Source: Escherichia phage HK3. Taken from it: 64,000 nucleotides of DNA. The stretch is taken from sequence record PP526765; one strand, written 5' to 3'. The notes below the pieces were generated by a model. That model had not been told where the DNA came from, ran no database searches, and saw only the letters and a list, made by a program, of their open reading frames with translations. Below are positions 2,470 to 43,170 of the stretch, one piece after another (within the stretch, counting starts at the first letter, position 1; each line of letters begins with the position of its first letter). A program made the translations under genes and the position numbers.

Positions 2470-3351
2470 ATGAAAACTATTATTGAAGCCGTTGTCACCG
2501 CACAAGAGAAATTCTTCCACACAGAAAAATTTAATATCATCCAATTCCCATCTGGAGAAATTGGTGGAAACTTCTCTGAAGATTTTGTTAAGTTTACTGA
2601 GTGTAATGCTGGTAAGATTGACAATGTTATACTTACTGTGCAGGGATATGATAAAGATACACTGTTTGCATTAGCTTTGGCTAAGGATGCCATTGACAGT
2701 CTTGTTCCATATAAATCAGCGATGAAAACCGTTGTTTTCGGGTTCTTACCGAATGCTCGATATGACCGCCATATGTTCAAAGGCGATTCAGCAGCACTGA
2801 AAGCTTTTGCCAACCTCGTTAATGCAATGGGTTTTGATGCAGTATGTACTCTTGACCCTCACAGCAATGTTGCAGAAAACTTATTTAAGTGCTTCCAGAG
2901 CATGAAGCAAAAAGATGTGGCAGTACACTTTGCAAGTGACCCACGCATTGATTTATTGGTAGCTCCAGATGCAGGTGCAGCTAAGAAGACTGAAGAGGCT
3001 GCTAAAGAGGTGGATAAACCATACATCACAATGTCTAAAGTACGCAACCTTAAGACTGGTGAAATTACTGGTATGCGAATCCTTGATGCTGTTGATTTGA
3101 CAGATAAAACTGTCATGATTCTCGATGATATCTGTGATGGTGGTCGAACCTTCATAGAAGCAGCTAAACATCTTCGTGAAGCAGGTGCAAAACGTGTGGA
3201 ACTCTATGTAACTCATGGCATTTTCTCTAAAGGTGTTGAAAACTTACTTGACAATGGTATTGACCATATCTACACTACAAACTCTTTAGGGGAAGCTAAA
3301 GACCGTGGCTTAACACATTATGCCCAAGTTACTGTAATTACCATTGATTGA
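2470..3351 (+). CDS. ribose-phosphate pyrophosphokinase-like protein (Prs family; possibly ADPR-PP synthetase type)
   Basis: PRPP-binding motif ILDDICDGGRTF near C-terminus; ORF track starts at a TTG (2455), first ATG at 2470. Confidence 0.7.
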   Translation: MKTIIEAVVTAQEKFFHTEKFNIIQFPSGEIGGNFSEDFVKFTECNAGKIDNVILTVQGYDKDTLFALALAKDAIDSLVPYKSAMKTVVFGFLPNARYDRHMFKGDSAALKAFANLVNAMGFDAVCTLDPHSNVAENLFKCFQSMKQKDVAVHFASDPRIDLLVAPDAGAAKKTEEAAKEVDKPYITMSKVRNLKTGEITGMRILDAVDLTDKTVMILDDICDGGRTFIEAAKHLREAGAKRVELYVTHGIFSKGVENLLDNGIDHIYTTNSLGEAKDRGLTHYAQVTVITID

Positions 3352-25036: not shown

Positions 25037-25322
25037 CGTTAAACTCTCTGACGAAGAAATAGTTGACTTTGTTATTACCTACCATAAGGTCAAAGCAGGT
25101 ATTTTCAAAAGGTTTGTTGTAGGCATCATATGAAACATATGGGTCAGCTACTTGCTTAGTGCTTAACTTCTTACTTGATGGTTTTAAGAGGCCACCATAC
25201 AGTTTCTTGATAGCCTCTTCTACAACAGACCAGATAATCTCGTCAGTAATTTCTTCGTACAGGTCAAGTTCACGCTCTAGTGAGAAGTCACAAATAGGGA
25301 AAATAACCTGCACTTTACTCAT
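25029..25322 (-). CDS. hypothetical protein (97 aa)
   Basis: ORF track. Confidence 0.45.
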   Translation of the reverse strand: MSKVQVIFPICDFSLERELDLYEEITDEIIWSVVEEAIKKLYGGLLKPSSKKLSTKQVADPYVSYDAYNKPFENTCFDLMVGNNKVNYFFVREFNDE

Positions 25323-25723
25323 TAGCGAATGACCTGTGTTACCTGAATAGCTTCAGTTACTGACAAATCACCAACCGTTTCTTCTTTGACGAAGGTGAAG
25401 GTCAGTTCAACAGGCTCTTGCTCTTCTTCTTCTTGCTCAACTGGAACACCATTAAGCTCATCAAAGATTGATTGAGTTGTCCAGTCTTCTCCACCATCTG
25501 GGTAGTGGATTGCATAAAGAGGGAACTCTAAATTATACCAAGCAAAAACAGGGCAACCATCTACATCATCTCGGCATCTGTGGAGATATGTGTTTGTACC
25601 TTCAAAATGCAAATGGAGATTACCATTCTCCTCAAAGATGAGAGCATCTTGCAGGTCTAGTTCCTCATTTTCGCTGTAACGGCTGACATCAACTTTAACG
25701 TGAATATGACTATTATTATTCAT
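25322..25723 (-). CDS. hypothetical acidic protein (133 aa)
   Basis: ORF track. Confidence 0.5.
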   Translation of the reverse strand: MNNNSHIHVKVDVSRYSENEELDLQDALIFEENGNLHLHFEGTNTYLHRCRDDVDGCPVFAWYNLEFPLYAIHYPDGGEDWTTQSIFDELNGVPVEQEEEEQEPVELTFTFVKEETVGDLSVTEAIQVTQVIR

Positions 25724-26127: not shown

Positions 26128-26155
26128 GAAAATAAAAAAGGCTCCCGAAGGAGCC
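26128..26155 (-). terminator. rho-independent terminator downstream of the lysozyme gene
   Basis: GGCTCC-CGAA-GGAGCC hairpin with a T-run on the minus strand. Confidence 0.6.
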
Positions 26156-26165
26156 TATGAAGATA

Positions 26166-26630
26166 TTACTTTGGGTATACACTGTCAAGATAAATGTCAG
26201 CTTCCATTCTACGTCTGTTTTTCAGACCGTTTGAAGTGACCTTCTTACCTTTGACCGTAACCTTGTTCCACCACTGCATAGCTTCTGCACAACCGCCCTT
26301 ATTACCAGCGTTGTGGCGCTTGATAAATGTGGAGTCCTGCATAGCTGTGATGCCGATGTTGTATGTTTCACTTACAAGTGCATCGAACTCATTCTGAGAA
26401 GTTGGAACCTTGATAGCTTTATTCACTGCTGCAACGAACTTCTCAACATCTGCGAGAAGATACTGTTCAGCTTGTTCAGCAGTAATTTTCATACCCATCT
26501 TAACAGGTTTTCCGTCCATACGGATTGTACCATACCCGATTGTCGGGATTCCGGCAGAATCTTCGTAAGCCTCTAACTTCAGACCTTCAAAGAACTTAAT
26601 AGCTTCTAAACCTTTTCTTGAGAGTTGCAT
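26166..26630 (-). CDS. endolysin, T4-lysozyme-like (GH24)
   Basis: FEGLKLEAYEDSAGIPTIGYGT reproduces the T4 lysozyme catalytic E-(8)-D-(5)-T spacing. Confidence 0.8.
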   Translation of the reverse strand: MQLSRKGLEAIKFFEGLKLEAYEDSAGIPTIGYGTIRMDGKPVKMGMKITAEQAEQYLLADVEKFVAAVNKAIKVPTSQNEFDALVSETYNIGITAMQDSTFIKRHNAGNKGGCAEAMQWWNKVTVKGKKVTSNGLKNRRRMEADIYLDSVYPK

Positions 26631-27262
26631 TATTCCTCCCCTGCTGGGTTAACTGTAACTGTTGCTGCATTAGATGTCACAGAGCCACCTGCACCAGTAA
26701 CTACACAGGTGTAGCTTCCTGCATCAGCAGCAGTTGCACCTTCTTTGGTATAAGTTGCAGCAGTTGCTTCTGGGATAACTTCCTCACCCTTCTTCCACTG
26801 ATAGCCTGTTGCATCAGTAGCAACAACACTTAGTGTCAAGGTGTCACCTTCAGTGATTTCTTGATTGGTTGGCTGCTGAGTGATTGATGGTGGTTTGACA
26901 GCACCTTTCAACTTAGCATTCAGCATTGAGAATGGTTTAACTCTTGCCAGCCATTCACAGTAAATTGTGTCAACATCTTTACCATTGATGATTGCATATT
27001 GTAAGTCCATGAAGAAGTCAGAAGTTCTCATTTGAGCACCGATGCTGTAAAGCAACTCATCACTAAATGGGACTTTATAGGCTGGTTTGTAGTCAAACTT
27101 CTTAACTTCTGCAATATCAGCTTCAGGCCAATACGAACTATATGTAAGCGGTAAAATAGCCTCTTGATATGTTCTAAAATCATATCTCTTACCAGCCTTT
27201 ACATTTGCAACGAAGCCCTTCACAAACTCTTTGAAGTCTGGGTAAGTCTTTGCTTTAATCAT
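26630..27262 (-). CDS. protein with N-terminal domain paralogous to the next gene and a C-terminal Ig-like domain
   Basis: C-terminus GDTLTLSV..GYQW..DAGSYTCVV..VTV has an I-set Ig signature; N-terminus aligns by eye with ORF 27259..27630. Confidence 0.55.
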   Translation of the reverse strand: MIKAKTYPDFKEFVKGFVANVKAGKRYDFRTYQEAILPLTYSSYWPEADIAEVKKFDYKPAYKVPFSDELLYSIGAQMRTSDFFMDLQYAIINGKDVDTIYCEWLARVKPFSMLNAKLKGAVKPPSITQQPTNQEITEGDTLTLSVVATDATGYQWKKGEEVIPEATAATYTKEGATAADAGSYTCVVTGAGGSVTSNAATVTVNPAGEE

Positions 27263-27630
27263 TTCTTTTTAGCCTCTAAATGTGCGTTTAGTCTAAAATA
27301 ACCTTTGTGATGCGGAGATACATCACCAACAACAATACCCTTAACCTTATAACCTTTACCAATTACATACTGGATATCCATAAGGAATCTTCCAAGTCCA
27401 ACAATATGGAACATTGGATATAACAGTTTCTCAGAATCTGGAATATTGATTTCAGGTTTGTAGGTGCGTTGTTCGCTTGTTGGTGTAATATCTTCTTCAG
27501 GCCATTTACTGAGTCTCCATGTCAAAGGTGTTGGGATAACATCATTAAGGTTGTACCTTTCACCATTTTGCACGGAATTGATATAGGATTGTAGGAAGCA
27601 ATAAAAGTCTTTTGCACTCTTAGCTTTCAT
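27259..27630 (-). CDS. paralog of the N-terminal domain of the previous protein (123 aa)
   Basis: shared pattern KAK..DF...RY...PLT...WPE.DI...YKP...SE.LLY...FMD.QY.I..GK. Confidence 0.5.
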   Translation of the reverse strand: MKAKSAKDFYCFLQSYINSVQNGERYNLNDVIPTPLTWRLSKWPEEDITPTSEQRTYKPEINIPDSEKLLYPMFHIVGLGRFLMDIQYVIGKGYKVKGIVVGDVSPHHKGYFRLNAHLEAKKK

Positions 27631-27677
27631 TAAATATCCTTATAAATAGTTAAAGGGGCTGATGCCCCTATCCACAC

Positions 27678-28268
27678 TTAAGCTTTGGTCTTAAGTAGGT
27701 TCTTAAGTTTTTTAAGATTCATACTCTCATCAAACTTAAAACCAAATCCATTGACATAATCAATGAACTCGGATTTCTTACTGAGTGACAATGCGTAACT
27801 CATATCAAAGTTCTTACTTGTTTCTGCGTCTGGACTAGAGTTCACATCAAATGAAATTTCTGTCGGCTCTTGCTTACTTTTTCTAATATTATCAACCAAC
27901 AAACATGTATAGTTTGCTGGATAGAAATTTACACTACCATCAACGTAGCTGTACTTATTATTATGGATAAGGTTGGAAAAGACCTTAAGGAATGTTTCTG
28001 AGTCGTGGCAAACAAGCTTGAATTGGCTGCTCTCTCCAAGCGCAACTAATGAGTACGGACTTTCACTATCGAAGTCATAGTTTGGATTCGATGTCGTAAC
28101 TGTTACACGCATCAAGTTATTAGCAATAGTCTTCTGTTTAAAAGAATTTGGAACATAGTGAAGACCTCTATCGCACTGATTAACTAATTCTTTCAATAGG
28201 TCATTTGCATATGGTGAATTAATTGATACAGAGCCATCACTATTATAATTAAAACTTACTGTTAACAT
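27678..28268 (-). CDS. hypothetical protein (196 aa)
   Basis: ORF track. Confidence 0.5.
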   Translation of the reverse strand: MLTVSFNYNSDGSVSINSPYANDLLKELVNQCDRGLHYVPNSFKQKTIANNLMRVTVTTSNPNYDFDSESPYSLVALGESSQFKLVCHDSETFLKVFSNLIHNNKYSYVDGSVNFYPANYTCLLVDNIRKSKQEPTEISFDVNSSPDAETSKNFDMSYALSLSKKSEFIDYVNGFGFKFDESMNLKKLKNLLKTKA

Positions 28269-28887: not shown

Positions 28888-29259
28888 ATGAAAAACAGAA
28901 CAAACAAAGGCCAGTTTAAAAAAGGCCAGTCTGGAAACCCATCTGGAAGACCAAAAGGCTCTCGTAACAAAAGCTCACTTGTAAAAGCTCAACTGACCAT
29001 TGATAATTCTGCTGAGTTCGCTGCAAAGCTGTTTGAGGCGATTGTTACAAGGGACGCGGCTAAGCTTGCAGAGTTCGGTTTGACGACTGACGATGTAAAC
29101 CTGAAGTCAATGATGGAAGCTGGTAAAACTATCATGACCCACTCAGCAGGTGAGATGAAAGCCATTGCAGCAGACACTAAGAAGACTCCTGATAATGGTG
29201 GTCAACAACAGACAGATAACAAACCAACGTTCTCTGCTGTAGCGACTCTCAAAAAATAA
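28888..29259 (+). CDS. hypothetical protein with N-terminal basic motif KKGQSGNPSGRPKGSRN
   Basis: ORF track; function not assigned. Confidence 0.5.
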   Translation: MKNRTNKGQFKKGQSGNPSGRPKGSRNKSSLVKAQLTIDNSAEFAAKLFEAIVTRDAAKLAEFGLTTDDVNLKSMMEAGKTIMTHSAGEMKAIAADTKKTPDNGGQQQTDNKPTFSAVATLKK

Positions 29260-29338: not shown

Positions 29339-30754
29339 ATGAGCAAGTTATTTAAACATGCGCACCTTCATGCAGGTCGAACTGAAAATGGTGCTGTAAA
29401 CCATACTTCATCAATGTCTGCTCTGGTAGACTTCTACAAAGCCGCTGGTTCAAGCCGTAGCAATGTAGAAATCTTACCAGACCTGTTCTACAAAGCTTTG
29501 CGTGAGGATGTTGATGTTGCAGTTCGTATTTTACTGCATATGCGAGATGTACGAGAAGGTATGGGCGAGCGTAAAGCTTTCCGAACTGTTTTGCTTCAAG
29601 CGATTGAAGATAAGGTTTTAGAACCTACACAGGTTCTTCGCATTATGGATAAGATTGCAGAACTTGGTCGTTTTGATGACTTCAAAATCTTTGTAGGTAC
29701 TCGTTTTGAGACAGACGCCTTCAAACATTTAGAAGCAGCATTACTAGACCCTGCAACAGCAGGTTTAGCAGCTAAGTGGTTGCCACGAGTAAAACCACGC
29801 CACAAACAGTTTGTAAAACGTTTCTGCAAGTTTGCAAACTTAAGTGAGAAGGAGTATCGCACACTGTTGTCTGCACTATCTGATACGGTTGAGCAAAAAA
29901 TCTCTGCTAATGAGTTTGGTAAGATTGACTACAGCAAGATTCCTTCACTAGCTGCTGCACGTTACCAAAAACTCTTTAACCGTAAAGATGGTGAACGTTA
30001 CAAAGCTTACATCGAGTCGCTCTCAAAGGGTGAGGCTAAGATTAATGCTGGTGCTGTTTACCCATACGATGTGATTAAATCTATTAAGTATGGTAATGCA
30101 GATGTTGCTAATGAGCAGTGGAAAGCACTTCCAAACTGGATGGCAGAAGGTGAAAACATCTTGTGTATGACTGATGTTTCAAGCTCAATGTCTTGGGTGA
30201 ATCTTGGTTCAATCACTGCCCTTGATATTGGTGTATCACTTGCTTTGTATGTAGCAGAACGCAATACTGGTTGCTTTAAAGATGAGTTAATGGTTTACTC
30301 AACAAACCCTCACTTCATTGAACTGAGTGGTGATTTACGAAACCGTCATCGTCAGGTGATGCGTCACGTTGAATATGGCTCAACTAACTTACAAGCAGCT
30401 TTTGACCGTATTCTTGAAATAGGTAAGAGAAACAACTTGACTCAGAAAGATATGCCAAGTAAGCTTATTATCTTCTCTGATATGGAGTTTAATCAGGTTG
30501 ATGGTGCAAATGGTCATACAAACTTTGAAGCAATTCAGAGTAAGTACAAAAAAGCCGGATACGAAATGCCACAACTAGTATTCTGGTACTTAGCAAACCG
30601 TAATGGTACTTGCGAAGTATCTGTTAAGGATAATGGTGTAGCAATGGTATCAGGGTTCTCTCCAGCCACTTTAAAAGCTCTACTTGGTGGTGAGAAGTTT
30701 GACCCAATCAGCGTAATGCTCAAAGCAGTAATGATTGACCGTTATATCTGGTAA
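29339..30754 (+). CDS. vWA-domain protein with MIDAS motif; candidate Ro60/TROVE-like (Rsr-like) RNA-binding protein
   Basis: C-terminal vWA signature ILCMTDVSSSMS (DxSxS); about 470 aa with helical N-terminal region; sits directly upstream of the tRNA/ncRNA cluster; TROVE assignment is inference. Confidence 0.4.
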   Translation: MSKLFKHAHLHAGRTENGAVNHTSSMSALVDFYKAAGSSRSNVEILPDLFYKALREDVDVAVRILLHMRDVREGMGERKAFRTVLLQAIEDKVLEPTQVLRIMDKIAELGRFDDFKIFVGTRFETDAFKHLEAALLDPATAGLAAKWLPRVKPRHKQFVKRFCKFANLSEKEYRTLLSALSDTVEQKISANEFGKIDYSKIPSLAAARYQKLFNRKDGERYKAYIESLSKGEAKINAGAVYPYDVIKSIKYGNADVANEQWKALPNWMAEGENILCMTDVSSSMSWVNLGSITALDIGVSLALYVAERNTGCFKDELMVYSTNPHFIELSGDLRNRHRQVMRHVEYGSTNLQAAFDRILEIGKRNNLTQKDMPSKLIIFSDMEFNQVDGANGHTNFEAIQSKYKKAGYEMPQLVFWYLANRNGTCEVSVKDNGVAMVSGFSPATLKALLGGEKFDPISVMLKAVMIDRYIW

Positions 30755-30919: not shown

Positions 30920-30996
30920 CTCTGTTTAGCTCAGCTTGGTAGAGCGTTCCGTTTGGGGCGGTAAGGCCGGAGGTTCAAGTCCTCCAACAGAGACCA
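30920..30996 (+). tRNA. tRNA-Pro (anticodon UGG)
   Basis: 7-bp acceptor CTCTGTT/AACAGAG, D-stem GCTC/GAGC, T-arm GGAGG-TTCAAGT-CCTCC, encoded CCA. Confidence 0.6.
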
Positions 30997-31003
30997 AATT
31001 AAT

Positions 31004-31081
31004 GTTCCAGTAGACAAAATGGTATAGTCACCACTCTTTCAAAGTGGATATTTGAGGGTTCAAATCCCTTCTGGAACGCCA
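31004..31081 (+). tRNA. tRNA-Glu (anticodon UUC)
   Basis: perfect acceptor GTTCCAG/CTGGAAC, anticodon stem CCACT/AGTGG, loop CTTTCAA, T-loop TTCAAAT, CCA. Confidence 0.6.
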
Positions 31082-31087
31082 GTTTTG

Positions 31088-31162
31088 ACAGAAGACCAAT
31101 TACAGCAAACTTAATCTTATTCATCTGAAGGTAAATCGGACAAAGAAGAGATTTGGTCTGGT
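31088..31162 (+). ncRNA. structured spacer element a (conserved 5' CAGAAGACCAATTACAGCAA, 3' TTGGTCTGG)
   Basis: 7-bp long-range stem AGACCAA/TTGGTCT; one of four sibling elements. Confidence 0.45.
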
Positions 31163-31172
31163 CATTAAGAAT

Positions 31173-31249
31173 TGCGGGTATAGAGAAAGGGCGTCTCACA
31201 TGTCTCATTAGCATGGTATCGGCAGGTTCGACTCCTGCACCCGCCTCCA
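31173..31249 (+). tRNA. tRNA with CAU anticodon (elongator Met or Ile-lysidine type)
   Basis: loop CTCATTA, D-stem GAGA/TCTC, T-arm GCAGG-TTCGACT-CCTGC, CCA; mismatch at acceptor pair 1:72. Confidence 0.5.
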
Positions 31250-31255
31250 AATTTA

Positions 31256-31320
31256 CAGAAGACCGTTTACAGCAATATTTATTAAATTTTTAGCGGAAAA
31301 ATTGAAAGATACGGTCTGGT
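31256..31320 (+). ncRNA. structured spacer element b (5' CAGAAGACCGTTTACAGCAA, 3' ACGGTCTGG)
   Basis: stem AGACCGT/ACGGTCT; GT/AC replaces the AA/TT of elements a and c. Confidence 0.45.
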
Positions 31321-31333
31321 AATACTAAACATG

Positions 31334-31410
31334 GTTAGGAAGCACATAAGGTATGTGCGGTCGCCTGTTAAGCGAATGGCACAGGGTTCGAATCCCTGAC
31401 TAACCGCCAA
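31334..31410 (+). tRNA. tRNA-Asn (anticodon GUU)
   Basis: D-stem GCAC/GTGC, loop CTGTTAA, T-arm CAGGG-TTCGAAT-CCCTG, CCA. Confidence 0.55.
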
Positions 31411-31481
31411 ATTTAGGAGAGAAGCGATTGCTCACCGATTTGTAAGGTGCAAGTCCTTAGCCTGAATAGAATAATAAAATG

Positions 31482-31569
31482 TGTCGTTATCCCGTAGATG
31501 GTAGCGGTGGGGACTGTAAATCCCTTGTCATTGAGACTCGGTAGGTTCGACTCCTACACGGCACACCAA
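31482..31569 (+). tRNA. tRNA-Tyr (anticodon GUA), long variable arm
   Basis: acceptor GTGTCGT/ACGGCAC, anticodon stem GGGGA/TCCCT, loop CTGTAAA, 88 nt, T-loop TTCGACT, CCA. Confidence 0.6.
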
Positions 31570-31630
31570 TTTTGAGAGGGCTATTTAGCCCCTCCCTTAA
31601 AGAGTTCTTACGAGTACCCTTTAAAGGAGC

Positions 31631-31704
31631 AGAAGACCAAATACAGCAAGTTACTTAAAATTTCAAGCCAATTCAATTTTGAAAAATTTAAAACTTGGTC
31701 TGGC
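31631..31704 (+). ncRNA. structured spacer element c (5' CAGAAGACCAAATACAGCAA, 3' TTGGTCTGG)
   Basis: stem AGACCAA/TTGGTCT. Confidence 0.45.
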
Positions 31705-31717
31705 TCAACAAATTTAC

Positions 31718-31848
31718 AGAAGACCGTTTACAGCAAAACTTAAACAATCTATTTCTCGGTAAAGAAAAGGTGAAGGTTCGATTCCTTCACTCGGCAGATG
31801 TCGAGTTGGTGTAATGGTAGCACTTAAGATGATAAACAACGGTCTGGT
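31718..31848 (+). ncRNA. structured element d with circularly permuted tRNA-like module (candidate YrlA-like Y RNA)
   Basis: order: 5' stem strand AGACCGT (31722) - T-arm GAAGG-TTCGATT-CCTTC (31773-31789) - acceptor-like hairpin ACTCGGC-AGAT-GTCGAGT (31790-31807) - D-arm GTGT-AATGGTA-GCAC (31810-31824) - 3' stem strand ACGGTCT (31840-31846). Confidence 0.5.
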
Positions 31849-31849
31849 A

Positions 31850-31985
31850 ATTATCTTTGCAGTAGCTTATGTGGCTAATTATATCGTCCCATGAGTGCCG
31901 ATGAATTTCCTTAGCATGATTCTAGATTAGCTTAATAGGAAATGACTCTACAGACCCTTTAGCAAGGTCTGCGTAGGTTACTGCA
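31850..31985 (+). ncRNA. element enclosed by a perfect 16-bp inverted repeat (AATTATCTTTGCAGTA ... TACTGCAAAGATAATT) around 104 nt
   Basis: arms at 31850-31865 and 31970-31985; interior has further hairpins (AGACC...GGTCT); no ORF. Confidence 0.5.
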
Positions 31986-31999
31986 AAGATAATTTAATA

Positions 32000-32075
32000 G
32001 AAGTGTAGCAGAATGGTGATGCGGCAGACTTTTAATCTGATAGGTGATGGGTTCGAATCCCTCCACTTCTACCAA
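32000..32075 (+). tRNA. tRNA-Lys (anticodon UUU)
   Basis: perfect acceptor AGAAGTG/CACTTCT, loop CTTTTAA, T-loop TTCGAAT, CCA; T-stem only 3 clean pairs. Confidence 0.5.
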
Positions 32076-32079
32076 TATG

Positions 32080-32156
32080 GTTCAGTCGCAGATAAGGTAA
32101 TGCAGGGGTCTCATAAGCCCTATGAATGTGGGTTCGATTCCCATCTGAGCCTCCAA
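32080..32156 (+). tRNA. initiator-like tRNA-fMet (anticodon CAU)
   Basis: anticodon stem-loop GGGCTCATAACCC with three G:C pairs closing the loop; T-arm GTGGG-TTCGATT-CCCAT; CCA. Confidence 0.55.
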
Positions 32157-32158
32157 TG

Positions 32159-32234
32159 CTGTGAAAGCACATATGGATGTGCATTCGGCTGATAACCGAA
32201 AGGAAGAAGGTTCGAATCCTTCTCACAGTACCAA
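32159..32234 (+). tRNA. tRNA-Ile (anticodon GAU)
   Basis: D-stem GCAC/GTGC, anticodon stem TTCGG/CCGAA, loop CTGATAA, T-arm GAAGG-TTCGAAT-CCTTC, CCA. Confidence 0.65.
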
Positions 32235-32249
32235 TTTCAATAAAGTTGT

Positions 32250-32278
32250 TGACATTGAGATGTGACCACTTTATAGTA
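32250..32278 (+). promoter_or_regulatory. internal promoter TTGACA-N17-TATAGT inside the tRNA cluster
   Basis: read directly. Confidence 0.55.
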
Positions 32279-32481
32279 ACCTTAGTTTTCGTTGCGTAGC
32301 GTCTATTTTGCAAATTTAAAATAAATGCAAACGACAATGTTTTTCTGGCAGTAGCTTGATAGGCTAAACACCAGTGAGGTCTTCCAATCCCTCATCAAAG
32401 AATTTGGCGTACTAGCCCACGGTATGATTAATAAGGTGGGCATCTTTAAGGGTTTTTTAAGAGAGTCTTTAAAGATTAATG

Positions 32482-32558
32482 CACCCTTAGTTCAACTGGA
32501 CAGAACAAATGACTTCTAATCATTAGGTTACAGGTTCGAATCCTGTAGGGTGTGCCAA
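32482..32558 (+). tRNA. tRNA-Arg (anticodon UCU)
   Basis: D-stem GTTC/GAAC, anticodon stem AATGA/TCATT, loop CTTCTAA, T-arm ACAGG-TTCGAAT-CCTGT, CCA. Confidence 0.65.
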
Positions 32559-32700
32559 ATAGTTAGCAGATTGCTTAGACGACCTTATCGGGTCTCCGTG
32601 TAGGGAGGTGGTCTGTATCTCATGTTTTCCAGAACATGTAAATAATCTGAGAAGGGGCTTTACAGTGTTGAGATAATACGGTAAGCTTCGAATTATAGTA

Positions 32701-32783
32701 TGGGACGATGTTAAGACTCTAAGGCATGAGCAACGGCTTCCAACACCGTTTCAAAGGGATTCAACTCCTCCGTCCCATGCCAA
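32701..32783 (+). tRNA. atypical tRNA-like gene (possible anticodon CCA, Trp); irregular D and T arms
   Basis: perfect 7-bp acceptor ATGGGAC/GTCCCAT plus G-CCA, but T-stem has only 3 clean pairs and the D-region is 26 nt. Confidence 0.35.
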
Positions 32784-32796
32784 AGTCTTATTAGGG

Positions 32797-32886
32797 GTAG
32801 GTAGCGGCTAATGGTAGCCAAACTGTCTTGAAAACAGTTGCCACTGTAGAGATACGGTGAGGGTTCGACTCCTTTACTTACCGCCT
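32797..32886 (+). tRNA. tRNA-Ser (anticodon UGA), long variable arm
   Basis: anticodon stem ACTGT/ACAGT, loop CTTGAAA, 20-nt variable arm, T-loop TTCGACT; CCA not fully encoded. Confidence 0.55.
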
Positions 32887-33040
32887 AATAAGATTTAAAG
32901 CCAAGCTTCATTCGGATGTTGCTTTGGTATCCCTCGTGTATTGTCGTACACACTGATAAAGCACCTAGTAGGTGTCACGGAGAAGAGATAATATCAAGCT
33001 CTCCAAAGGTTCTAGTCACCGGATTAAACAAGACTATGCA

Positions 33041-33063
33041 AAGACCTGTTTAGGTCTTTTTAG
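33041..33063 (+). terminator. short hairpin AAGACC-TGTTTA-GGTCTT followed by TTTTT inside the tRNA cluster
   Basis: read directly; may instead be a processing signal. Confidence 0.35.
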
Positions 33064-33141
33064 AGGGCTTCTAAGGTTATTACAGCTTGTTGTGGAACCT
33101 TGTTGCTTAGGTTCTTAGAAGTTCTCTAAAAAGATTTAATG

Positions 33142-33218
33142 CACCTATAGCCCAACTGGTAGAGGCAGCAGACTTAGAATCTGCTCAGTGTGAGTTCGAA
33201 TCTCTCTAGGTGTACCAA
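33142..33218 (+). tRNA. tRNA with anticodon UAG (Leu by anticodon; short variable arm)
   Basis: 6-bp anticodon stem AGCAGA/TCTGCT, loop CTTAGAA, T-loop TTCGAAT, CCA; 77 nt. Confidence 0.45.
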
Positions 33219-33225
33219 ATTAATG

Positions 33226-33301
33226 CAGGTGTAGCAAAATGGTTATGCGGCTGACTCTTAATCAGTAAGACGATGGTTTCAATTCCCTCCACCTGTACCA
33301 G
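33226..33301 (+). tRNA. tRNA-Lys (anticodon CUU)
   Basis: loop CTCTTAA; T-arm paralogous to the Lys-UUU gene; CCA. Confidence 0.45.
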
Positions 33302-33307
33302 ACATTG

Positions 33308-33383
33308 GGGATGTAGTTTACATGGTTAAAACATAAGTTTTGCAAACTTAAGTACAGGGTTCAATTCCCTGCTTCTCCACCAA
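33308..33383 (+). tRNA. tRNA-Ala (anticodon UGC)
   Basis: G3:U70 pair in acceptor stem (Ala identity), D-stem GTTT/AAAC, anticodon stem TAAGT/ACTTA, loop TTTGCAA, CCA. Confidence 0.7.
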
Positions 33384-33389
33384 TTAGTG

Positions 33390-33464
33390 CATCCATAGTT
33401 TAAACGGGAAAATTACAGTCTTCCAAACTGAGGTTGAGGGTTCGATTCCCTCTGGATGCTCCAA
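33390..33464 (+). tRNA. tRNA-Gly (anticodon UCC)
   Basis: perfect acceptor GCATCCA/TGGATGC, loop CTTCCAA, T-arm GAGGG-TTCGATT-CCCTC, CCA. Confidence 0.65.
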
Positions 33465-33470
33465 ATAATG

Positions 33471-33547
33471 CTGCTTTCGTATAATTGGCTATTACACATC
33501 CCTTGTAAGGATGGAAATGCAGGTTCGAGTCCTGTGAGCAGCACCAA
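33471..33547 (+). tRNA. tRNA-Thr (anticodon UGU)
   Basis: anticodon stem CATCC/GGATG, loop CTTGTAA, T-loop TTCGAGT, CCA. Confidence 0.6.
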
Positions 33548-33551
33548 TTCA

Positions 33552-33637
33552 GAGGTCAAGTGAAAGACCGCTGGTGTCAACTGAAGACCGTAACAAATTC
33601 CACGGAGTTGAGTTAGCGGCACAACTTCAGACCTCTT
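33552..33637 (+). ncRNA. structured spacer element closed by AGAGGTC / GACCTCT stem, containing a GAAGACCGT motif
   Basis: 7-bp inverted termini; interior shares GAAGACCGT with elements a-d. Confidence 0.35.
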
Positions 33638-33642
33638 TCATA

Positions 33643-33717
33643 CTCGCTTAGTTTATATGGTAAAACACCACCCTTACAAGATGAAGAAAAAGGTTCAAGT
33701 CCTTTAGTGAGTACCAT
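33643..33717 (+). tRNA. tRNA-Val (anticodon UAC), weak anticodon stem
   Basis: D-stem GTTT/AAAC, loop CTTACAA, perfect T-arm AAAGG-TTCAAGT-CCTTT, CCA. Confidence 0.4.
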
Positions 33718-33718
33718 G

Positions 33719-33796
33719 TTCCAATATCCCAATTGGCAGAGGATGCAAGCTCAAACCTTGTACTAGTGACGGTTCGAATCCGTCTTGGAACACCAA
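33719..33796 (+). tRNA. tRNA with anticodon CAA (Leu by anticodon; short variable arm)
   Basis: perfect acceptor GTTCCAA/TTGGAAC, anticodon stem GCAAG/CTTGT, loop CTCAAAC, T-arm GACGG-TTCGAAT-CCGTC, CCA. Confidence 0.5.
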
Positions 33797-33910
33797 TTTT
33801 GGGAGAGCACTATGAGTGATAAGTCAATAGCAAAAAAGTTTAGAGCGTCATACCTAAACAGACGTAAAAACAAAGATTGTGAAAAACTGTATGGTGTTCT
33901 TGTAGGTAAG

Positions 33911-33986
33911 CAGGATTAGTTCAAATGGATAGAGCAGCAGTCTACGAAGCTGTTAATAGGGGTTCGAATCCCTTATCCTGCGCCAA
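33911..33986 (+). tRNA. tRNA-Arg (anticodon ACG)
   Basis: perfect acceptor GCAGGAT/ATCCTGC, loop CTACGAA, T-loop TTCGAAT, CCA. Confidence 0.65.
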
Positions 33987-34004
33987 TTTTAAGAGGCTAT
34001 TTAG

Positions 34005-34562
34005 ATGAGATATTTGAAGTATGCTTCATGGATTTTCCTAGCTTTGTTAGACCCATTGGCAGCAACCTTAGCAGTTATCTTAGCACCTTTTGTAGTTCCA
34101 TTCTACAGTGAGAAGAAAGGGCACTTACCTTTCGGCTTCAGATGGATGGAGACATATGACAACCCAATTGATGGTGATAAAGGTCATGTTGAACGATGGG
34201 CTAAGATTAGAAAGATTGGTAAGCTTGGTGTCTATATGCAGAGAGTCGGTTGGCTCTGGAGAAACAAAGCTTATAACTTCTCTTACCATGTGTTAGGAAG
34301 AGATGTAAAAGATGTTACTAAGTGGAAAGGTAATATCAACGTAAGCTCTGACCCTGAAGATAATCAGACAGGTTATCTCCTAATGTGGAACAGTAATGCT
34401 TGGGGATTATTCGCTTTTATCCCATCAATTAAAGTCTTTGGTAAACAATTCTACTGGAGAATTTATATTGGGTGGAAACTAAAAAGTGTTGTCCCAGAAG
34501 AAAGAGCATTCTCAAGGGAAAGAGTTATGTTGGCATTCTTTATTCATCCACTGAGAAAGTAA
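34005..34562 (+). CDS. hydrophobic protein encoded inside the tRNA cluster (185 aa)
   Basis: ORF track; AAGAGG Shine-Dalgarno 9 nt upstream; hydrophobic N-terminal helix. Confidence 0.55.
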   Translation: MRYLKYASWIFLALLDPLAATLAVILAPFVVPFYSEKKGHLPFGFRWMETYDNPIDGDKGHVERWAKIRKIGKLGVYMQRVGWLWRNKAYNFSYHVLGRDVKDVTKWKGNINVSSDPEDNQTGYLLMWNSNAWGLFAFIPSIKVFGKQFYWRIYIGWKLKSVVPEERAFSRERVMLAFFIHPLRK

Positions 34563-34570
34563 AGATTTAA

Positions 34571-34646
34571 AGGGGATTAGTTTACAAGGTTAAAACCTCG
34601 GTCTTTGAAATCGAAGAAGTTGGTTCAATTCCAACATCCCCCGCCA
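34571..34646 (+). tRNA. tRNA-Gln (anticodon UUG)
   Basis: D-stem GTTT/AAAC, anticodon stem TCGGT/ATCGA, loop CTTTGAA, perfect T-arm GTTGG-TTCAATT-CCAAC, CCA; A1:C72 mismatch. Confidence 0.6.
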
Positions 34647-34648
34647 AT

Positions 34649-34727
34649 GCTCCATTACTCCAATTGGCAGAGAGGCCAGACTTAAAATCTGTGTTATGTA
34701 TCGGTTCGAATCCGATATGGAGTACCA
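34649..34727 (+). tRNA. tRNA with anticodon UAA (Leu by anticodon; 7-nt variable region)
   Basis: acceptor GCTCCAT/ATGGAGT, loop CTTAAAA, T-arm ATCGG-TTCGAAT-CCGAT, CCA. Confidence 0.45.
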
Positions 34728-34732
34728 AATTT

Positions 34733-34808
34733 AGCGGTATAGCATAACTGGCAATGCAACAGTCTCTGAAGCTGTCTTATTAAGGTTCAAATCCTTATGC
34801 CGCTGCCA
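34733..34808 (+). tRNA. tRNA-Gln (anticodon CUG)
   Basis: D-stem GCAT/ATGC, anticodon stem ACAGT/GCTGT, loop CTCTGAA, T-arm TAAGG-TTCAAAT-CCTTA, CCA. Confidence 0.65.
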
Positions 34809-34839
34809 CTTCTAAGGATTCTTACGAGAGTCCTTAAAT

Positions 34840-34915
34840 GTGGCCTTATCATAAACGGTAATGACCCATGCTGTGAACATGGTCTATACGGGTTCAAATC
34901 CCGTAGGTCACCCCA
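34840..34915 (+). tRNA. tRNA-His (anticodon GUG)
   Basis: D-stem TCAT/ATGA, perfect anticodon stem CCATG/CATGG, loop CTGTGAA, T-arm ACGGG-TTCAAAT-CCCGT, C73, CCA. Confidence 0.65.
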
Positions 34916-34920
34916 ATTTA

Positions 34921-34997
34921 TAGTCCAAGTAGCTTATATGGTTAAAGCGCGTGTCTGAAAAACATGAGAAGAGGGTTCAAATCCCACTGGATTACCA
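34921..34997 (+). tRNA. tRNA-Phe (anticodon GAA)
   Basis: anticodon stem CGTGT/ACATG, loop CTGAAAA, T-loop TTCAAAT; acceptor register uncertain by 1 nt. Confidence 0.5.
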
Positions 34998-35013
34998 ATT
35001 TCAAAGGTGCTTA

Positions 35014-35748
35014 ATGAAAGAGATGACAGAACAAGGTAAGGAGATTTTTAATCTCTTAAAAACTGGTAAAGGGTTTTCTAACCCCCTTATTACTGGTGCA
35101 GCAGTTCTCGGTGGAACCGTAGCTGCCTCTACATCACTTGTAAGCTCTATTAGCTCTGTAACAGACCCTACAATAAAGGATAAACTTATTGCTGCTGGAC
35201 TTACAACAGTTCTGCTTAACAGCTTTACAACGAGTCTGACAAGCACTACAGCAACTACTAAGACCCTAACAGACTATGGTCAAAAATCTATTGATGAGTT
35301 TTCATCACGTATGCAGGTAGCAAAGGGATACTCCAATGTTATGGGTGCAGTAGGAGAACAAGTTGGTTGTACACCATTTAGTGGTATTATGGGTGTTGCT
35401 ACAGAGTATGGTCAAAAAGCTATGGATACAATTAACAGCACACTAGATGGCGTTAATGATGTATTAAGCGACTTACAGGATGCTATTGATAAAGGTCTTA
35501 ATACTATTTCTGATTTAGCTAACCAAGCTGTTAGTAAGATTAATGAAGGTATCTCAAAGATTACAGCTTATGCAGATGAAGTTGTGCAGATGATTGAAGA
35601 AGAAGCTGCCCTTATTGCAGAGTACCTTAAAACGAATATCAATGGGTTCTTAGCAGGTATCTTACCAGACTGGTTTGATGATGCTTGTAAAACTGGTGTG
35701 ATTGACACTATTGCAACACCAGAAATGAAGAACGCATTACAGAAATAA
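35014..35748 (+). CDS. Ser/Thr-rich hypothetical protein (about 244 aa)
   Basis: ATG at 35014 after AAAGGTG; track ORF 34951..35748 would overlap the tRNA-Phe gene. Confidence 0.5.
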   Translation: MKEMTEQGKEIFNLLKTGKGFSNPLITGAAVLGGTVAASTSLVSSISSVTDPTIKDKLIAAGLTTVLLNSFTTSLTSTTATTKTLTDYGQKSIDEFSSRMQVAKGYSNVMGAVGEQVGCTPFSGIMGVATEYGQKAMDTINSTLDGVNDVLSDLQDAIDKGLNTISDLANQAVSKINEGISKITAYADEVVQMIEEEAALIAEYLKTNINGFLAGILPDWFDDACKTGVIDTIATPEMKNALQK

Positions 35749-35749
35749 C

Positions 35750-35842
35750 GGAAGATTAACCCTAAAAGGTAAGGGAGCAGTTTGCTAAACTGCCAGTAGC
35801 TGAGAAATCGGTGTACCAGTTCAAGTCTGGTATCTTCCTCCA
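35750..35842 (+). tRNA. tRNA-Ser (anticodon GCU), long variable arm
   Basis: acceptor GGAAGAT/ATCTTCC, perfect anticodon stem GCAGT/ACTGC, loop TTGCTAA, 21-nt variable arm, T-arm ACCAG-TTCAAGT-CTGGT, CCA. Confidence 0.65.
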
Positions 35843-35846
35843 ATTT

Positions 35847-35922
35847 GAATCCGTGACAGAAATGGCTATGTACCTGTCTGCAAAACAGGTTTATAAGGGT
35901 TCGAGTCCCTTCGGATTCTCCA
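35847..35922 (+). tRNA. tRNA-Cys (anticodon GCA)
   Basis: perfect acceptor GAATCCG/CGGATTC, anticodon stem CCTGT/ACAGG, loop CTGCAAA, T-arm AAGGG-TTCGAGT-CCCTT, CCA. Confidence 0.7.
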
Positions 35923-42063: not shown

Positions 42064-43170
42064 ATGTTGACTAATTCTGAAAAAAGCAGATTTTTCCTTG
42101 CTGACCTGACTGGTGAAGTCCAGTCTATCCCAAATACTTATGGGTATATTTCCAACTTAGGTCTGTTCCGTTCAGCACCAATCACCCAAACTACTTTCCT
42201 TATGGACTTGACTGATTGGGATGTTAGCTTGCTTGATGCGGTAGACCGTGATAGCCGTAAAGCAGAGACTAGCGCACCTGAGCGTGTTCGTCAAATCAGC
42301 TTCCCAATGATGTACTTCAAAGAAGTTGAAAGCATTACTCCTGATGAGATTCAGGGTGTACGTCAGCCGGGTACTGCAAACGAACTGACTACTGAAGCTG
42401 TAGTACGTGCTAAGAAGCTGATGAAGATTCGTACCAAGTTCGATATTACTCGTGAGTTCCTGTTTATGCAAGCTCTGAAGGGTAAAGTTGTTGATGCTCG
42501 TGGTACTCTGTACGCTGACCTGTACAAGCAGTTCGACGTTGAGAAGAAGACTGTTTACTTCGACCTTGCCAACCCTAATGCTGACATCGACGCTTCTATC
42601 GAAGAACTGCGTATGCACATGGAAGACGAAGCTAAGACTGGCACTGTAATCAACGGCGAAGAAATTCACGTAGTTGTTGACCGTGTATTCTTCAGCAAAC
42701 TGGTTAAGCATCCTAAGATTCGTGACGCTTATCTTGCACAGCAGACTCCGCTGGCTTGGCAACAGATTACTGGTTCTCTGAGAACTGGTGGTACTGACGG
42801 CGTTCAGGCTCATATGAACACCTTCTACTACGGTGGTGTTAAGTTTGTCCAGTACAACGGTAAGTTCAAAGACAAGCGTGGTAAGGTTCACACTCTGGTG
42901 GGCATTGATGATGTAGCAGCAACTGTTGGTGTTGGTCATGCCTTCCCTAACGTATCTATGCTGGGTGAAGCTAACAACATCTTCGAAGTGGCATATGGCC
43001 CATGTCCTAAGATGGGTTATGCAAATACACTTGGTCAGGAACTGTACGTATTTGAATACGAAAAAGACCGTGACGAAGGTATTGACTTCGAAGCTCACTC
43101 TTACATGCTGCCATACTGCACTCGTCCTCAGTTGCTAGTAGATGTTCGCGCTGACGCTCAAGGTGGCTGA
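42064..43170 (+). CDS. major capsid protein (putative)
   Basis: 368-aa ORF after protease/scaffold; AGGAG-like Shine-Dalgarno; position-based call. Confidence 0.55.
   Translation: MLTNSEKSRFFLADLTGEVQSIPNTYGYISNLGLFRSAPITQTTFLMDLTDWDVSLLDAVDRDSRKAETSAPERVRQISFPMMYFKEVESITPDEIQGVRQPGTANELTTEAVVRAKKLMKIRTKFDITREFLFMQALKGKVVDARGTLYADLYKQFDVEKKTVYFDLANPNADIDASIEELRMHMEDEAKTGTVINGEEIHVVVDRVFFSKLVKHPKIRDAYLAQQTPLAWQQITGSLRTGGTDGVQAHMNTFYYGGVKFVQYNGKFKDKRGKVHTLVGIDDVAATVGVGHAFPNVSMLGEANNIFEVAYGPCPKMGYANTLGQELYVFEYEKDRDEGIDFEAHSYMLPYCTRPQLLVDVRADAQGG

Follow-up and report, generated by a model that had tools for sequence, protein, structure and literature searches.

What is the function of two adjacent and related genes that directly precede the endolysin gene of Escherichia phage HK3, and how did the pair arise? 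The question is raised by a stretch of 64,000 nucleotides of this phage (sequence record PP526765), here referred to as the window. Its interval 26630-27630 contains exactly two open reading frames (ORFs), both on the minus strand, which we call gene A and gene B; on the coding strand the order is A, B, endolysin. An earlier note, made from the sequence alone, had described them as recent tandem paralogs with a common N-terminal domain, of which one had gained a C-terminal immunoglobulin (Ig)-like domain and might decorate the phage surface. Judged by its sequence, the phage is a Felix O1-like myovirus of the genus Felixounavirus. The region shows 95% nucleotide identity to Escherichia phage adrianh and ~95% to Salmonella phage Felix O1, and it matches 245 phage records, the names of which refer, with few exceptions, to Felixounavirus or to phages of Escherichia, Salmonella, Shigella or Citrobacter. 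All relatives whose records were checked are classified as Ounavirinae.

We consider it highly likely that B is the capsid decoration protein Hex-Dec, that A is an old partial duplicate of its capsid-binding domain (CapBD), and that both genes form a coupled unit with the endolysin gene. The evidence for these parts differs in kind and is presented in turn.

Gene B and the capsid decoration protein Hex-Dec

Gene B almost certainly encodes the ortholog of Hex-Dec of phage Bas63 and of gp20 of Shigella phage Sf14, that is, a capsid decoration protein of the hexamer centre, and this holds for its identity as well as for its mechanism. In a phmmer search of PDB sequences, residues 1-207 of B matched chain S of 9NCF from Bas63 (E 3e-212) and chain S of 9C2D/9C3A from Sf14 (E 7e-149), which carry the PDB labels 'Immunoglobulin-like domain protein' and 'tail protein', respectively. 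The AlphaFold2 (AF2) model of the CapBD of B (predicted local distance difference test, pLDDT, 69; predicted template modelling score, pTM, 0.72) found 9ncf_S (E 7.5e-15, template modelling score, TM, 0.76) and 9c2d_S as its sole matches when compared to the PDB by Foldseek.

Hex-Dec/gp20 was described as a monomeric, Hoc-like decoration protein at the centre of the pentamer-proximal (facet-edge) hexamers of a T=9 capsid, with one copy per asymmetric unit; the true-3-fold hexamers are empty in both capsids, and the Ig domains are disordered in the maps of both Bas63 and Sf14 (PMC12609058, PMC11821841). In Sf14, Arg79 and Arg107 form salt bridges to Asp221 of three subunits of the major capsid protein (MCP), and gp20 was found in virions by mass spectrometry (MS) (PMC11821841). 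Both arginines are present in B and are invariant among all B orthologs compared. The MCP of the window matches 9ncf_A (E 1.5e-246) and 9c2d_A (E 1.7e-231) and has an Asp at residue 221. Moreover, the CapBD of B is basic (isoelectric point, pI, 9.0) and its Ig domain acidic (pI 4.1), in agreement with the Asp-lined hexamer centre and the negatively charged fibre of the published structures. The Hex-Dec gene of Bas63 is located >10 kb outside the structural module (PMC12609058). Gene B also sits outside this module, between a gene for a 196-aa protein (g196) and the GH24 endolysin gene, before an array of 25 tRNA genes.

Since B is the ortholog of a protein resolved by cryo-electron microscopy (cryo-EM), it can be assigned to the virion surface, which is where the earlier note had placed the Ig-bearing protein. 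One B monomer would be centred on each of the 60 pentamer-proximal hexamers, with the acidic Ig domain pointing outward.

Most GenBank records name B a tail protein, a label that goes back to 'HK97 major tail subunit', as the protein was first annotated in Felix O1; in the Felix O1 records B is gp12/ORF36, now 'tail protein', and A is ORF37, a 'hypothetical protein'. Besides these database names, PHROG 'major tail protein' families match B. However, the PHROG matches are limited to residues ~117-209, which correspond to the Ig domain, no Pfam tail family was matched, and the N-terminal domain finds only the capsid-bound chains of 9NCF and 9C2D. The Bas63 paper also calls the tail annotation wrong (PMC12609058). 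We therefore regard a tail function of B as scarcely credible. The confinement of the tail matches to the Ig region indicates that the label stems from the promiscuous Ig domain. The identity of B, its variable Ig number and the tail misannotation were all already published in 2025 (PMC12609058, PMC11821841).

The Ig domain and its copy number

The I-set Ig-like domain that the earlier note had read from the motifs GDTLTLSV, GYQW, DAGSYTCVV and VTV is borne out, as all four motifs are present in B and residues 124-204 exceed the Pfam cut-offs for Ig_3 (40.3 bits, cut-off 30), Ig_2 (37.4 bits, cut-off 27) and I-set (31.8 bits, cut-off 23.7). By sequence, the segment also matches solved Ig domains, namely those of the phage decoration-protein chain 5lxk_A (E 3.4e-10), obscurin, titin and Robo. 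According to these Pfam and PDB matches, the C-terminus of B is a single I-set/Ig_3 domain.

The length of B varies among relatives with the number of Ig repeats: it is 210 aa with one repeat (window, adrianh and JH2), 294 aa with two (Felix O1), 377 aa with three (LMP25 and HY02) and 460 aa with four (Bas63). Such variation between one and four Ig domains was reported before (PMC12609058, PMC11821841). The Ig domain of the window shares 90-91% amino acid identity with the last of three repeats of LMP25 and the last of two repeats of fKMPT1, compared to about 70% with Ig1. Among the repeats of Bas63 it scores 144 bits with Ig4 and 90-98 bits with Ig2 and Ig3. According to the Bas63 paper, it is repeat 1 that is conserved (PMC12609058). 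In the sequence comparison, the Ig domain of the window is the ortholog of the last repeat in proteins with several Ig domains and not of repeat 1. The short form is thus the CapBD joined to the terminal repeat. This joint is the product expected from recombination within the conserved P-x-ITQQPTNQ leader, and the one-Ig form most likely arose via recombination between tandem Ig-coding repeats.

The adhesion to carbohydrates that the earlier note had considered for the Ig domain would be a reasonable analogy to T4 Hoc; in the structural papers, an adhesion role of the Ig domains is only proposed (PMC12609058, PMC11821841).

Gene A and the capsid-binding domain

In a single BLASTP comparison A and B show 34% identity over 125 aa (E 8e-16). 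The alignment spans all of A and residues 2-123 of B, and hence the two adjacent minus-strand genes do share an N-terminal domain of ~120 aa. A ends at residue 123, without a C-terminal Ig domain. Its only matches among PDB sequences are the Hex-Dec chains 9ncf_S and 9c2d_S (E ~3e-11), and none of the Pfam families matched. The structure prediction proposed in the earlier note leads to the same chains for both CapBDs. For the AF2 model of A (pLDDT 71, pTM 0.71), 9ncf_S and 9c2d_S are the sole significant Foldseek matches in the PDB (TM 0.62-0.64, E 2.4e-5), a result that is supportive rather than independent; in BFVD the model retrieves its own orthologs, B orthologs and the 'BIG2 domain' protein of Erwinia phage phiEa104. 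With a pI of 9.3, A is as basic as the CapBD of B. A and B have about 30 invariant positions in common, for example K3, D9, E47, D49, D86, Q88 and N115. The MCP-contacting arginines are not among them: the position of Arg79 is occupied by Gly in all seven A orthologs compared, and that of Arg107 by His or Gln in six of the seven.

In each of the two phages whose capsids were solved, an intact A lies directly 5' of Hex-Dec (bas63_0125 in Bas63, FDI99_gp021 in Sf14). Our PDB sequence search found no chain with A's own sequence, so A is absent from both capsid models. Neither the term 'paralog' nor Sf14 gp21 is mentioned in the two structural papers or in the supplement of the Sf14 paper (PMC12609058, PMC11821841), and our literature search found no role for A and no virion-proteomics or transcriptome paper that covers it.

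Ratios of nonsynonymous to synonymous substitution rates (dN/dS) are 0.08-0.20 for A, 0.05-0.15 for the CapBD of B, 0.04-0.17 for the endolysin gene and 0.04-0.10 for g196. A is kept under purifying selection, and it is full length and intact in 232 of 252 phage records. A further 19 records have in common a pseudogene of A with a destroyed start codon and an internal deletion of ~220 bp. Phages with this pseudogene include fKMPT1, fBSPA4, REP5-12, Tf, mio, SP116, Z31 and P54, and in Z31 the Hex-Dec gene is also split, into ORFs of 134 aa and 55 aa. The 19 pseudogene records imply that A is dispensable. In Salmonella phage SP3_SHan-2021 (L011, MW296865.1, 1801-2679) one gene of 292 aa replaces both A and B. 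This chimera matches A at nucleotides 1-144 (94% identity) and B at nucleotides 150-366 (90% identity), and the crossover lies within a common TGGCCTGAAG..GATAT sequence that codes for the conserved W-P-E-x-D-I motif. Provided that the chimera does not result from misassembly, a CapBD may tolerate the first ~48 residues of A in place of those of B.

Considering these findings together, A is likely a derived, Ig-less duplicate of the anchor domain, which is selected and co-translated with B, non-essential, and not stoichiometric in the mature capsids solved so far. The paralogy of Hex-Dec with its upstream gene, the properties of A, the clade without functional A and the A::B chimera are not described in the literature that we searched and represent modest additions to the published work.

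Age and direction of the duplication

A search of 1.84 billion representative proteins with a hidden Markov model (HMM) of the CapBD returned only 12 clusters, and Foldseek comparisons of the CapBD models to PDB and BFVD revealed no fold relatives beyond Ounavirinae-type proteins. The CapBD is therefore narrowly distributed, and no function can be borrowed from other families.

A diverged metagenomic phage of 87 kb (L004) has the same arrangement of A (122 aa), B (298 aa) and lysozyme. In the distance tree the A clade and the B clade each contain Felixounavirus, Mooglevirus and L004, and the synonymous divergence (dS) of orthologs approaches or exceeds saturation when Mooglevirus or L004 is compared. 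Both observations indicate that the duplication is old and predates the split of Felixounavirus and Mooglevirus. In Kolesnikvirus, represented by Erwinia phage Fifi318, a g196 homolog (E 5e-23) is followed by a single CapBD+Big_2 gene and a lysin gene (44% identical), and no second CapBD ORF was found in this locus. In the distant lineage L009/L010, DUF5681 and a g196 homolog are accompanied by a single CapBD-Ig gene, without A; these contigs end directly after the CapBD-Ig gene. The B-type HMM scores better than the A-type HMM for four of five outgroup proteins, and the A branches of the tree are longer than the B branches.

Since the outgroups have a single CapBD+Ig-like gene in the same slot, A is most simply explained as a partial copy without the Ig domain. 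An ancestral CapBD+Ig-like gene would have undergone a partial tandem duplication that generated the Ig-less A, probably in the common ancestor of Felixounavirus, Mooglevirus and the diverged metagenomic lineage. Alternatively, the duplication could be older and A could have been lost later in Kolesnikvirus. Of the proposal of a recent tandem duplication with domain gain, only the tandem paralogy stands. An identity of 34%, clades that each span three lineages and dS values near or beyond saturation contradict a recent event, and with one CapBD+Ig-like gene and no A in Kolesnikvirus and the distant lineage, loss of the Ig domain from A is simpler than its gain by B.

An internal duplication within the CapBD was also considered and dismissed. 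When the first and second half of the A/B alignment were compared by hhalign at four split points, only 9 columns were aligned (E ~0.2). Pseudo-C2 lobes L1 and L2 of the CapBD were reported from the Bas63 structure (PMC12609058); as hhalign is not significant at the sequence level, these lobes are based on the published structure alone.

Expression context of A and B

The earlier note had put the pair downstream of the endolysin gene. On the coding strand A and B lie upstream of it and are translationally coupled to it. Felixounavirus and Mooglevirus both keep the ATGA overlap and the Shine-Dalgarno sequence at the A/B junction; the equivalent overlap of L004 is TAATG. The hairpin that follows the endolysin gene folds with a free energy of -12.9 kcal/mol (z-score -3.35), and none of 200 shuffled sequences folds as well. 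Because of the overlapping stop and start codons and this terminator-like hairpin, we read A, B and the endolysin gene as one translationally coupled unit, which presumably belongs to the late genes.

Another hairpin, 5' of A, is not clearly better than shuffled sequences (z -1.65), lacks a U run and was not called by the terminator scan. Its stems are invariant among relatives. The 4-nt loop reads ATCA in the window, and relatives carry either TGAT, which is the reverse complement of ATCA, or TAAT. Given its undistinguished folding energy and the missing U run, we did not accept this hairpin as a terminator and list it only as 'possible'. It may represent a transcript boundary or a processing site.

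Ig domains of phages are often appended by frameshifting. A fusion of A and B to a CapBD-CapBD-Ig protein by -1 frameshifting at AAAAAG just before the stop codon of A was taken into account. A ends with GCT AAA AAG AAA TGA, and a -1 shift out of the A frame leads into that of B. However, the heptamer is imperfect, with T instead of A ahead of the run, and the site is not conserved, since the sequence is CTGAAAAG in LMP25 and GCTAAGAA in Mooglevirus, and the end is a different one in L004. In contrast, the ATG and the Shine-Dalgarno sequence for independent initiation are conserved everywhere, and the B orthologs in the solved capsids begin at their own Met1. With an imperfect and unconserved site opposed to conserved signals for independent initiation, we rejected the fusion, to which we give next to no credence.

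Possible roles of gene A

Before the role of A is considered, several points have to be named that weaken the account given so far. The AF2 models of A and of the CapBD of B are only moderately confident (pLDDT 69-71). Two B-type rows in the alignment from which A was modelled bias its prediction toward the CapBD fold. The MS table of Sf14 comprises only the proteins that its authors deemed structural (PMC11821841), and with this scope the missing gp21 is not evidence of its absence from virions. The neighbor-joining tree of ~120 residues does not firmly put Kolesnikvirus outside the A/B split. Matches to sigma-70-like promoters were not above the expectation from shuffled sequences (7 found, 10 expected), so that no promoter is claimed, and the late timing of the unit follows from gene content only.

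We suggest that A would retain the fold and the basic charge of a CapBD but not the Arg contacts, and would not be a fixed part of the mature shell. Tentatively, A could bind the hexamer centres of the capsid weakly, transiently or in sub-stoichiometric amounts, for example on procapsids or in competition with B. It is a rather speculative extension that A acts as an Ig-less 'blank' Hex-Dec anchor which regulates decoration: by occupying procapsids or 3-fold hexamers transiently or sub-stoichiometrically, it would set the placement and the density of the Ig fibres. Retention of a common surface would fit the ~30 positions invariant between A and B, several of which are charged or polar. These residues make it less plausible that A was exapted, as a small basic protein, for a non-capsid role late in infection, such as a chaperone or partner for B or a factor of lysis timing. 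Although this is unlikely, the loss of the MCP-contacting arginines, the absence of A from the capsid models, its longer branches and poorer scores against outgroup CapBDs, and its place in one coupled unit with the endolysin gene all agree with such a function. On the other hand, no Pfam or PDB family points to another activity of A. The neighbouring endolysin gene had suggested a holin or spanin, and this role is ruled out, since neither A (maximum KD19 of 1.1) nor B has a transmembrane or hydrophobic segment.

Several of the properties named above would also suit a second stable decoration protein, located on the 20 empty true-3-fold hexamers or mixed with Hex-Dec on the 60 edge hexamers: a predicted fold and basic charge like those of the CapBD, co-expression with B by translational coupling, purifying selection, and the natural A::B chimera in a deposited complete phage genome, which suggests that the ~48 N-terminal residues of B can be replaced by those of A. 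Nevertheless, both cryo-EM studies see no density beyond the edge hexamers although both phages encode A, and the edge density was modelled at about 3 Å with the B sequence. Together with the loss of Arg79 in every ortholog and of Arg107 in most, and with 19 natural isolates that lack A, this renders stable decoration by A distinctly unlikely. The same isolates, the split B of Z31 and the merging of A into B in SP3_SHan-2021 could be taken as signs that A is a functionless duplicate in the process of being lost. We consider this very improbable, because A is intact and full length in all but 20 of the 252 records, its dN/dS stays at 0.08-0.20 out to lineages with saturated dS, and the stop-start overlap and the Shine-Dalgarno sequence are conserved.

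Related decoration systems

The closest known system is Hex-Dec of Bas63 (Escherichia phage JohannRWettstein; 9NCF chain S), which belongs to the same genus and occupies the same locus (g196, A, Hex-Dec, endolysin). Identity to the window amounts to about 94-96% for the CapBD and about 99% for the MCP, in which Asp221 is kept, and both Hex-Dec proteins have I-set repeats. They differ in the number of Ig domains, with four in Bas63 (460 aa) and one in the window (210 aa), where the terminal repeat is kept. Sf14 gp20 (9C2D/9C3A chain S) is the ortholog from the sister genus Mooglevirus, with the A-type gene FDI99_gp021 directly 5'. It binds as a monomer to the pentamer-proximal hexamers, contacts MCP Asp221 through Arg79 and Arg107 and was detected in virions by MS; these residues are shared by B and the MCP of the window. 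Sf14 gp20 has three Ig domains, and its CapBD is about 85% identical to that of the window.

Like Hex-Dec, T4 Hoc is a monomeric and non-essential decoration protein of the hexamer centre that combines a small capsid-binding domain with a string of acidic Ig-like domains and has a proposed function in adhesion or aggregation (PMC12609058, PMC11821841). However, Hoc binds the capsid via its C-terminus, so that the domain order is reversed compared to B, and the Bas63 paper describes the CapBD as larger, topologically distinct and pseudo-C2-symmetric (PMC12609058). Likeness to Hoc in sequence is limited to the Ig domain, as the PHROG 'Hoc-like' family matches residues 125-207 of B, and no Hoc chain is among the listed Foldseek matches of either CapBD model. 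Phage T5 pb10 (5lxk_A, 8zvi_a) shares with B the order of a capsid-binding domain at the N-terminus and a single C-terminal Ig-like domain. The Ig domains of both proteins are similar in sequence (E 3.4e-10 for 5lxk_A, 1.7e-10 for 8zvi_a). No N-domain of pb10 is among the best 50 PDB Foldseek matches of either CapBD model, and a very weak similarity is possible.

The 'BIG2 / Ig-like domain' protein of the Kolesnikvirus phages phiEa104 and Fifi318 (Fifi318 gp116) carries a homologous CapBD (HMM E 2.6e-16; Foldseek E 2.4e-3) and, like B, occupies the slot between the g196 homolog and the lysin gene. It differs from B by a Big_2 domain (PF02368) instead of I-set and by the lack of an A paralog. 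Other C-terminal modules behind the anchor were seen in L020 (Fifi318, 2501-3115) and in the proteins P0099, P0100, P0102 and P0103: besides Big_2 in Kolesnikvirus, P0102 (153 aa) has a low-complexity tail rich in Lys, Ser and Glu after the anchor, and P0103 has an unclassified beta-rich tail. The Kolesnikvirus homolog of Enterobacter phage phi63_307 is labelled 'kappa-carrageenase', presumably a mislabel due to the Big_2 domain.

Layout of the locus

The features of the locus and of its surroundings are listed in Table 1. Gene g196 adjoins the decoration gene in Felixounavirus, Mooglevirus, Kolesnikvirus and the distant L009 lineage (E about 1e-22) and may be functionally linked to the decoration gene or to the lysin. 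The tRNA array separates the leftward cluster of A, B and the endolysin gene from the structural module; such an array is typical of Felix O1-like phages. Directly before it, and divergent from the cluster, lie a DUF5681 gene and a DUF2828/DUF7788 gene, and the pairing of these two genes is kept even in the distant locus L009. The product of the DUF2828/DUF7788 gene is labelled 'RNA-binding protein' in RefSeq and 'vWFA protein' in another record.

Table 1. Features of the A-B-endolysin locus and its surroundings. Positions refer to the window, except for the two remnants of gene A, for which the locus is named.
Feature	Position	Strand	Remarks
Gene A	27259..27630	minus	123 aa; Ig-less paralog of the Hex-Dec CapBD; phrog_4463 E 5e-80; orthologs: Felix O1 ORF37, Bas63 bas63_0125, Sf14 FDI99_gp021
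Gene B	26630..27262	minus	210 aa; Hex-Dec, one-Ig form; phrog_3995 E 1e-116
B residues 1-123, CapBD	26894..27262	minus	pI 9.0; Arg79 and Arg107
B residues 124-210, single I-set/Ig_3 domain	26633..26893	minus	acidic, pI 4.1; Pfam
Overlap of A stop and B start, ATGA	27259..27262	minus	from sequence; GAGG Shine-Dalgarno within the 3' end of A
Overlap of B stop and endolysin start, TAATG	26628..26632	minus	from sequence; one base
Endolysin gene (GH24 phage lysozyme)	26166..26630	minus	PF00959 E 6e-41; phrog_7 endolysin
Intrinsic-terminator-like hairpin	26139..26156	minus	AGGCUCC-UUCG-GGAGCCU + U run; directly 3' of the endolysin gene
Hairpin GGGGC-N4-GCCCC	27655..27668	minus	in the 47-bp spacer 5' of gene A; weak support
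Major capsid protein (MCP) gene	42064..43170	plus	Hex-Dec binding partner; ~15 kb from B, opposite strand
Remnant of gene A	L013 (fKMPT1), 1606-1797
Remnant of gene A	L012 (Shigella phage Z31), 1606-1797
Gene g196	27678-28268	minus	196 aa; phrog_4034, unknown function; directly 5' of A
DUF5681 gene	28888-29259	plus
DUF2828/DUF7788 gene	29339-30754	plus	471 aa
Array of 25 tRNA genes	30920-35922	plus
133-aa ORF	25322-25723	minus	adrianh homolog annotated 'D-alanyl-D-alanine carboxypeptidase' (database label)

Implications for the Ounavirinae

The pair is a correct observation of a known system, accompanied by one unexplained accessory gene. With respect to gene B, we mainly correct the record: the common label 'tail protein' is wrong, and what this phage encodes is the shortest version, with one Ig domain, of a decoration protein whose structure has been solved. 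The comparison of relatives contributes a simple way in which the Ig copy number changes, namely recombination between tandem repeats that keeps the terminal repeat. One capsid anchor is combined with display modules that differ by genus (I-set, Big_2 or a Lys/Ser-rich tail), which is useful for the engineering of phage display on T=9 capsids.

Gene A is a conserved, co-translated and Ig-less copy of this anchor that is missing from both published capsid structures. As natural phages without A and one A::B chimera already exist, its role is cheap to test. If A indeed regulates decoration as a blank anchor, the Ounavirinae would carry a two-component decoration system that was overlooked by both cryo-EM studies.

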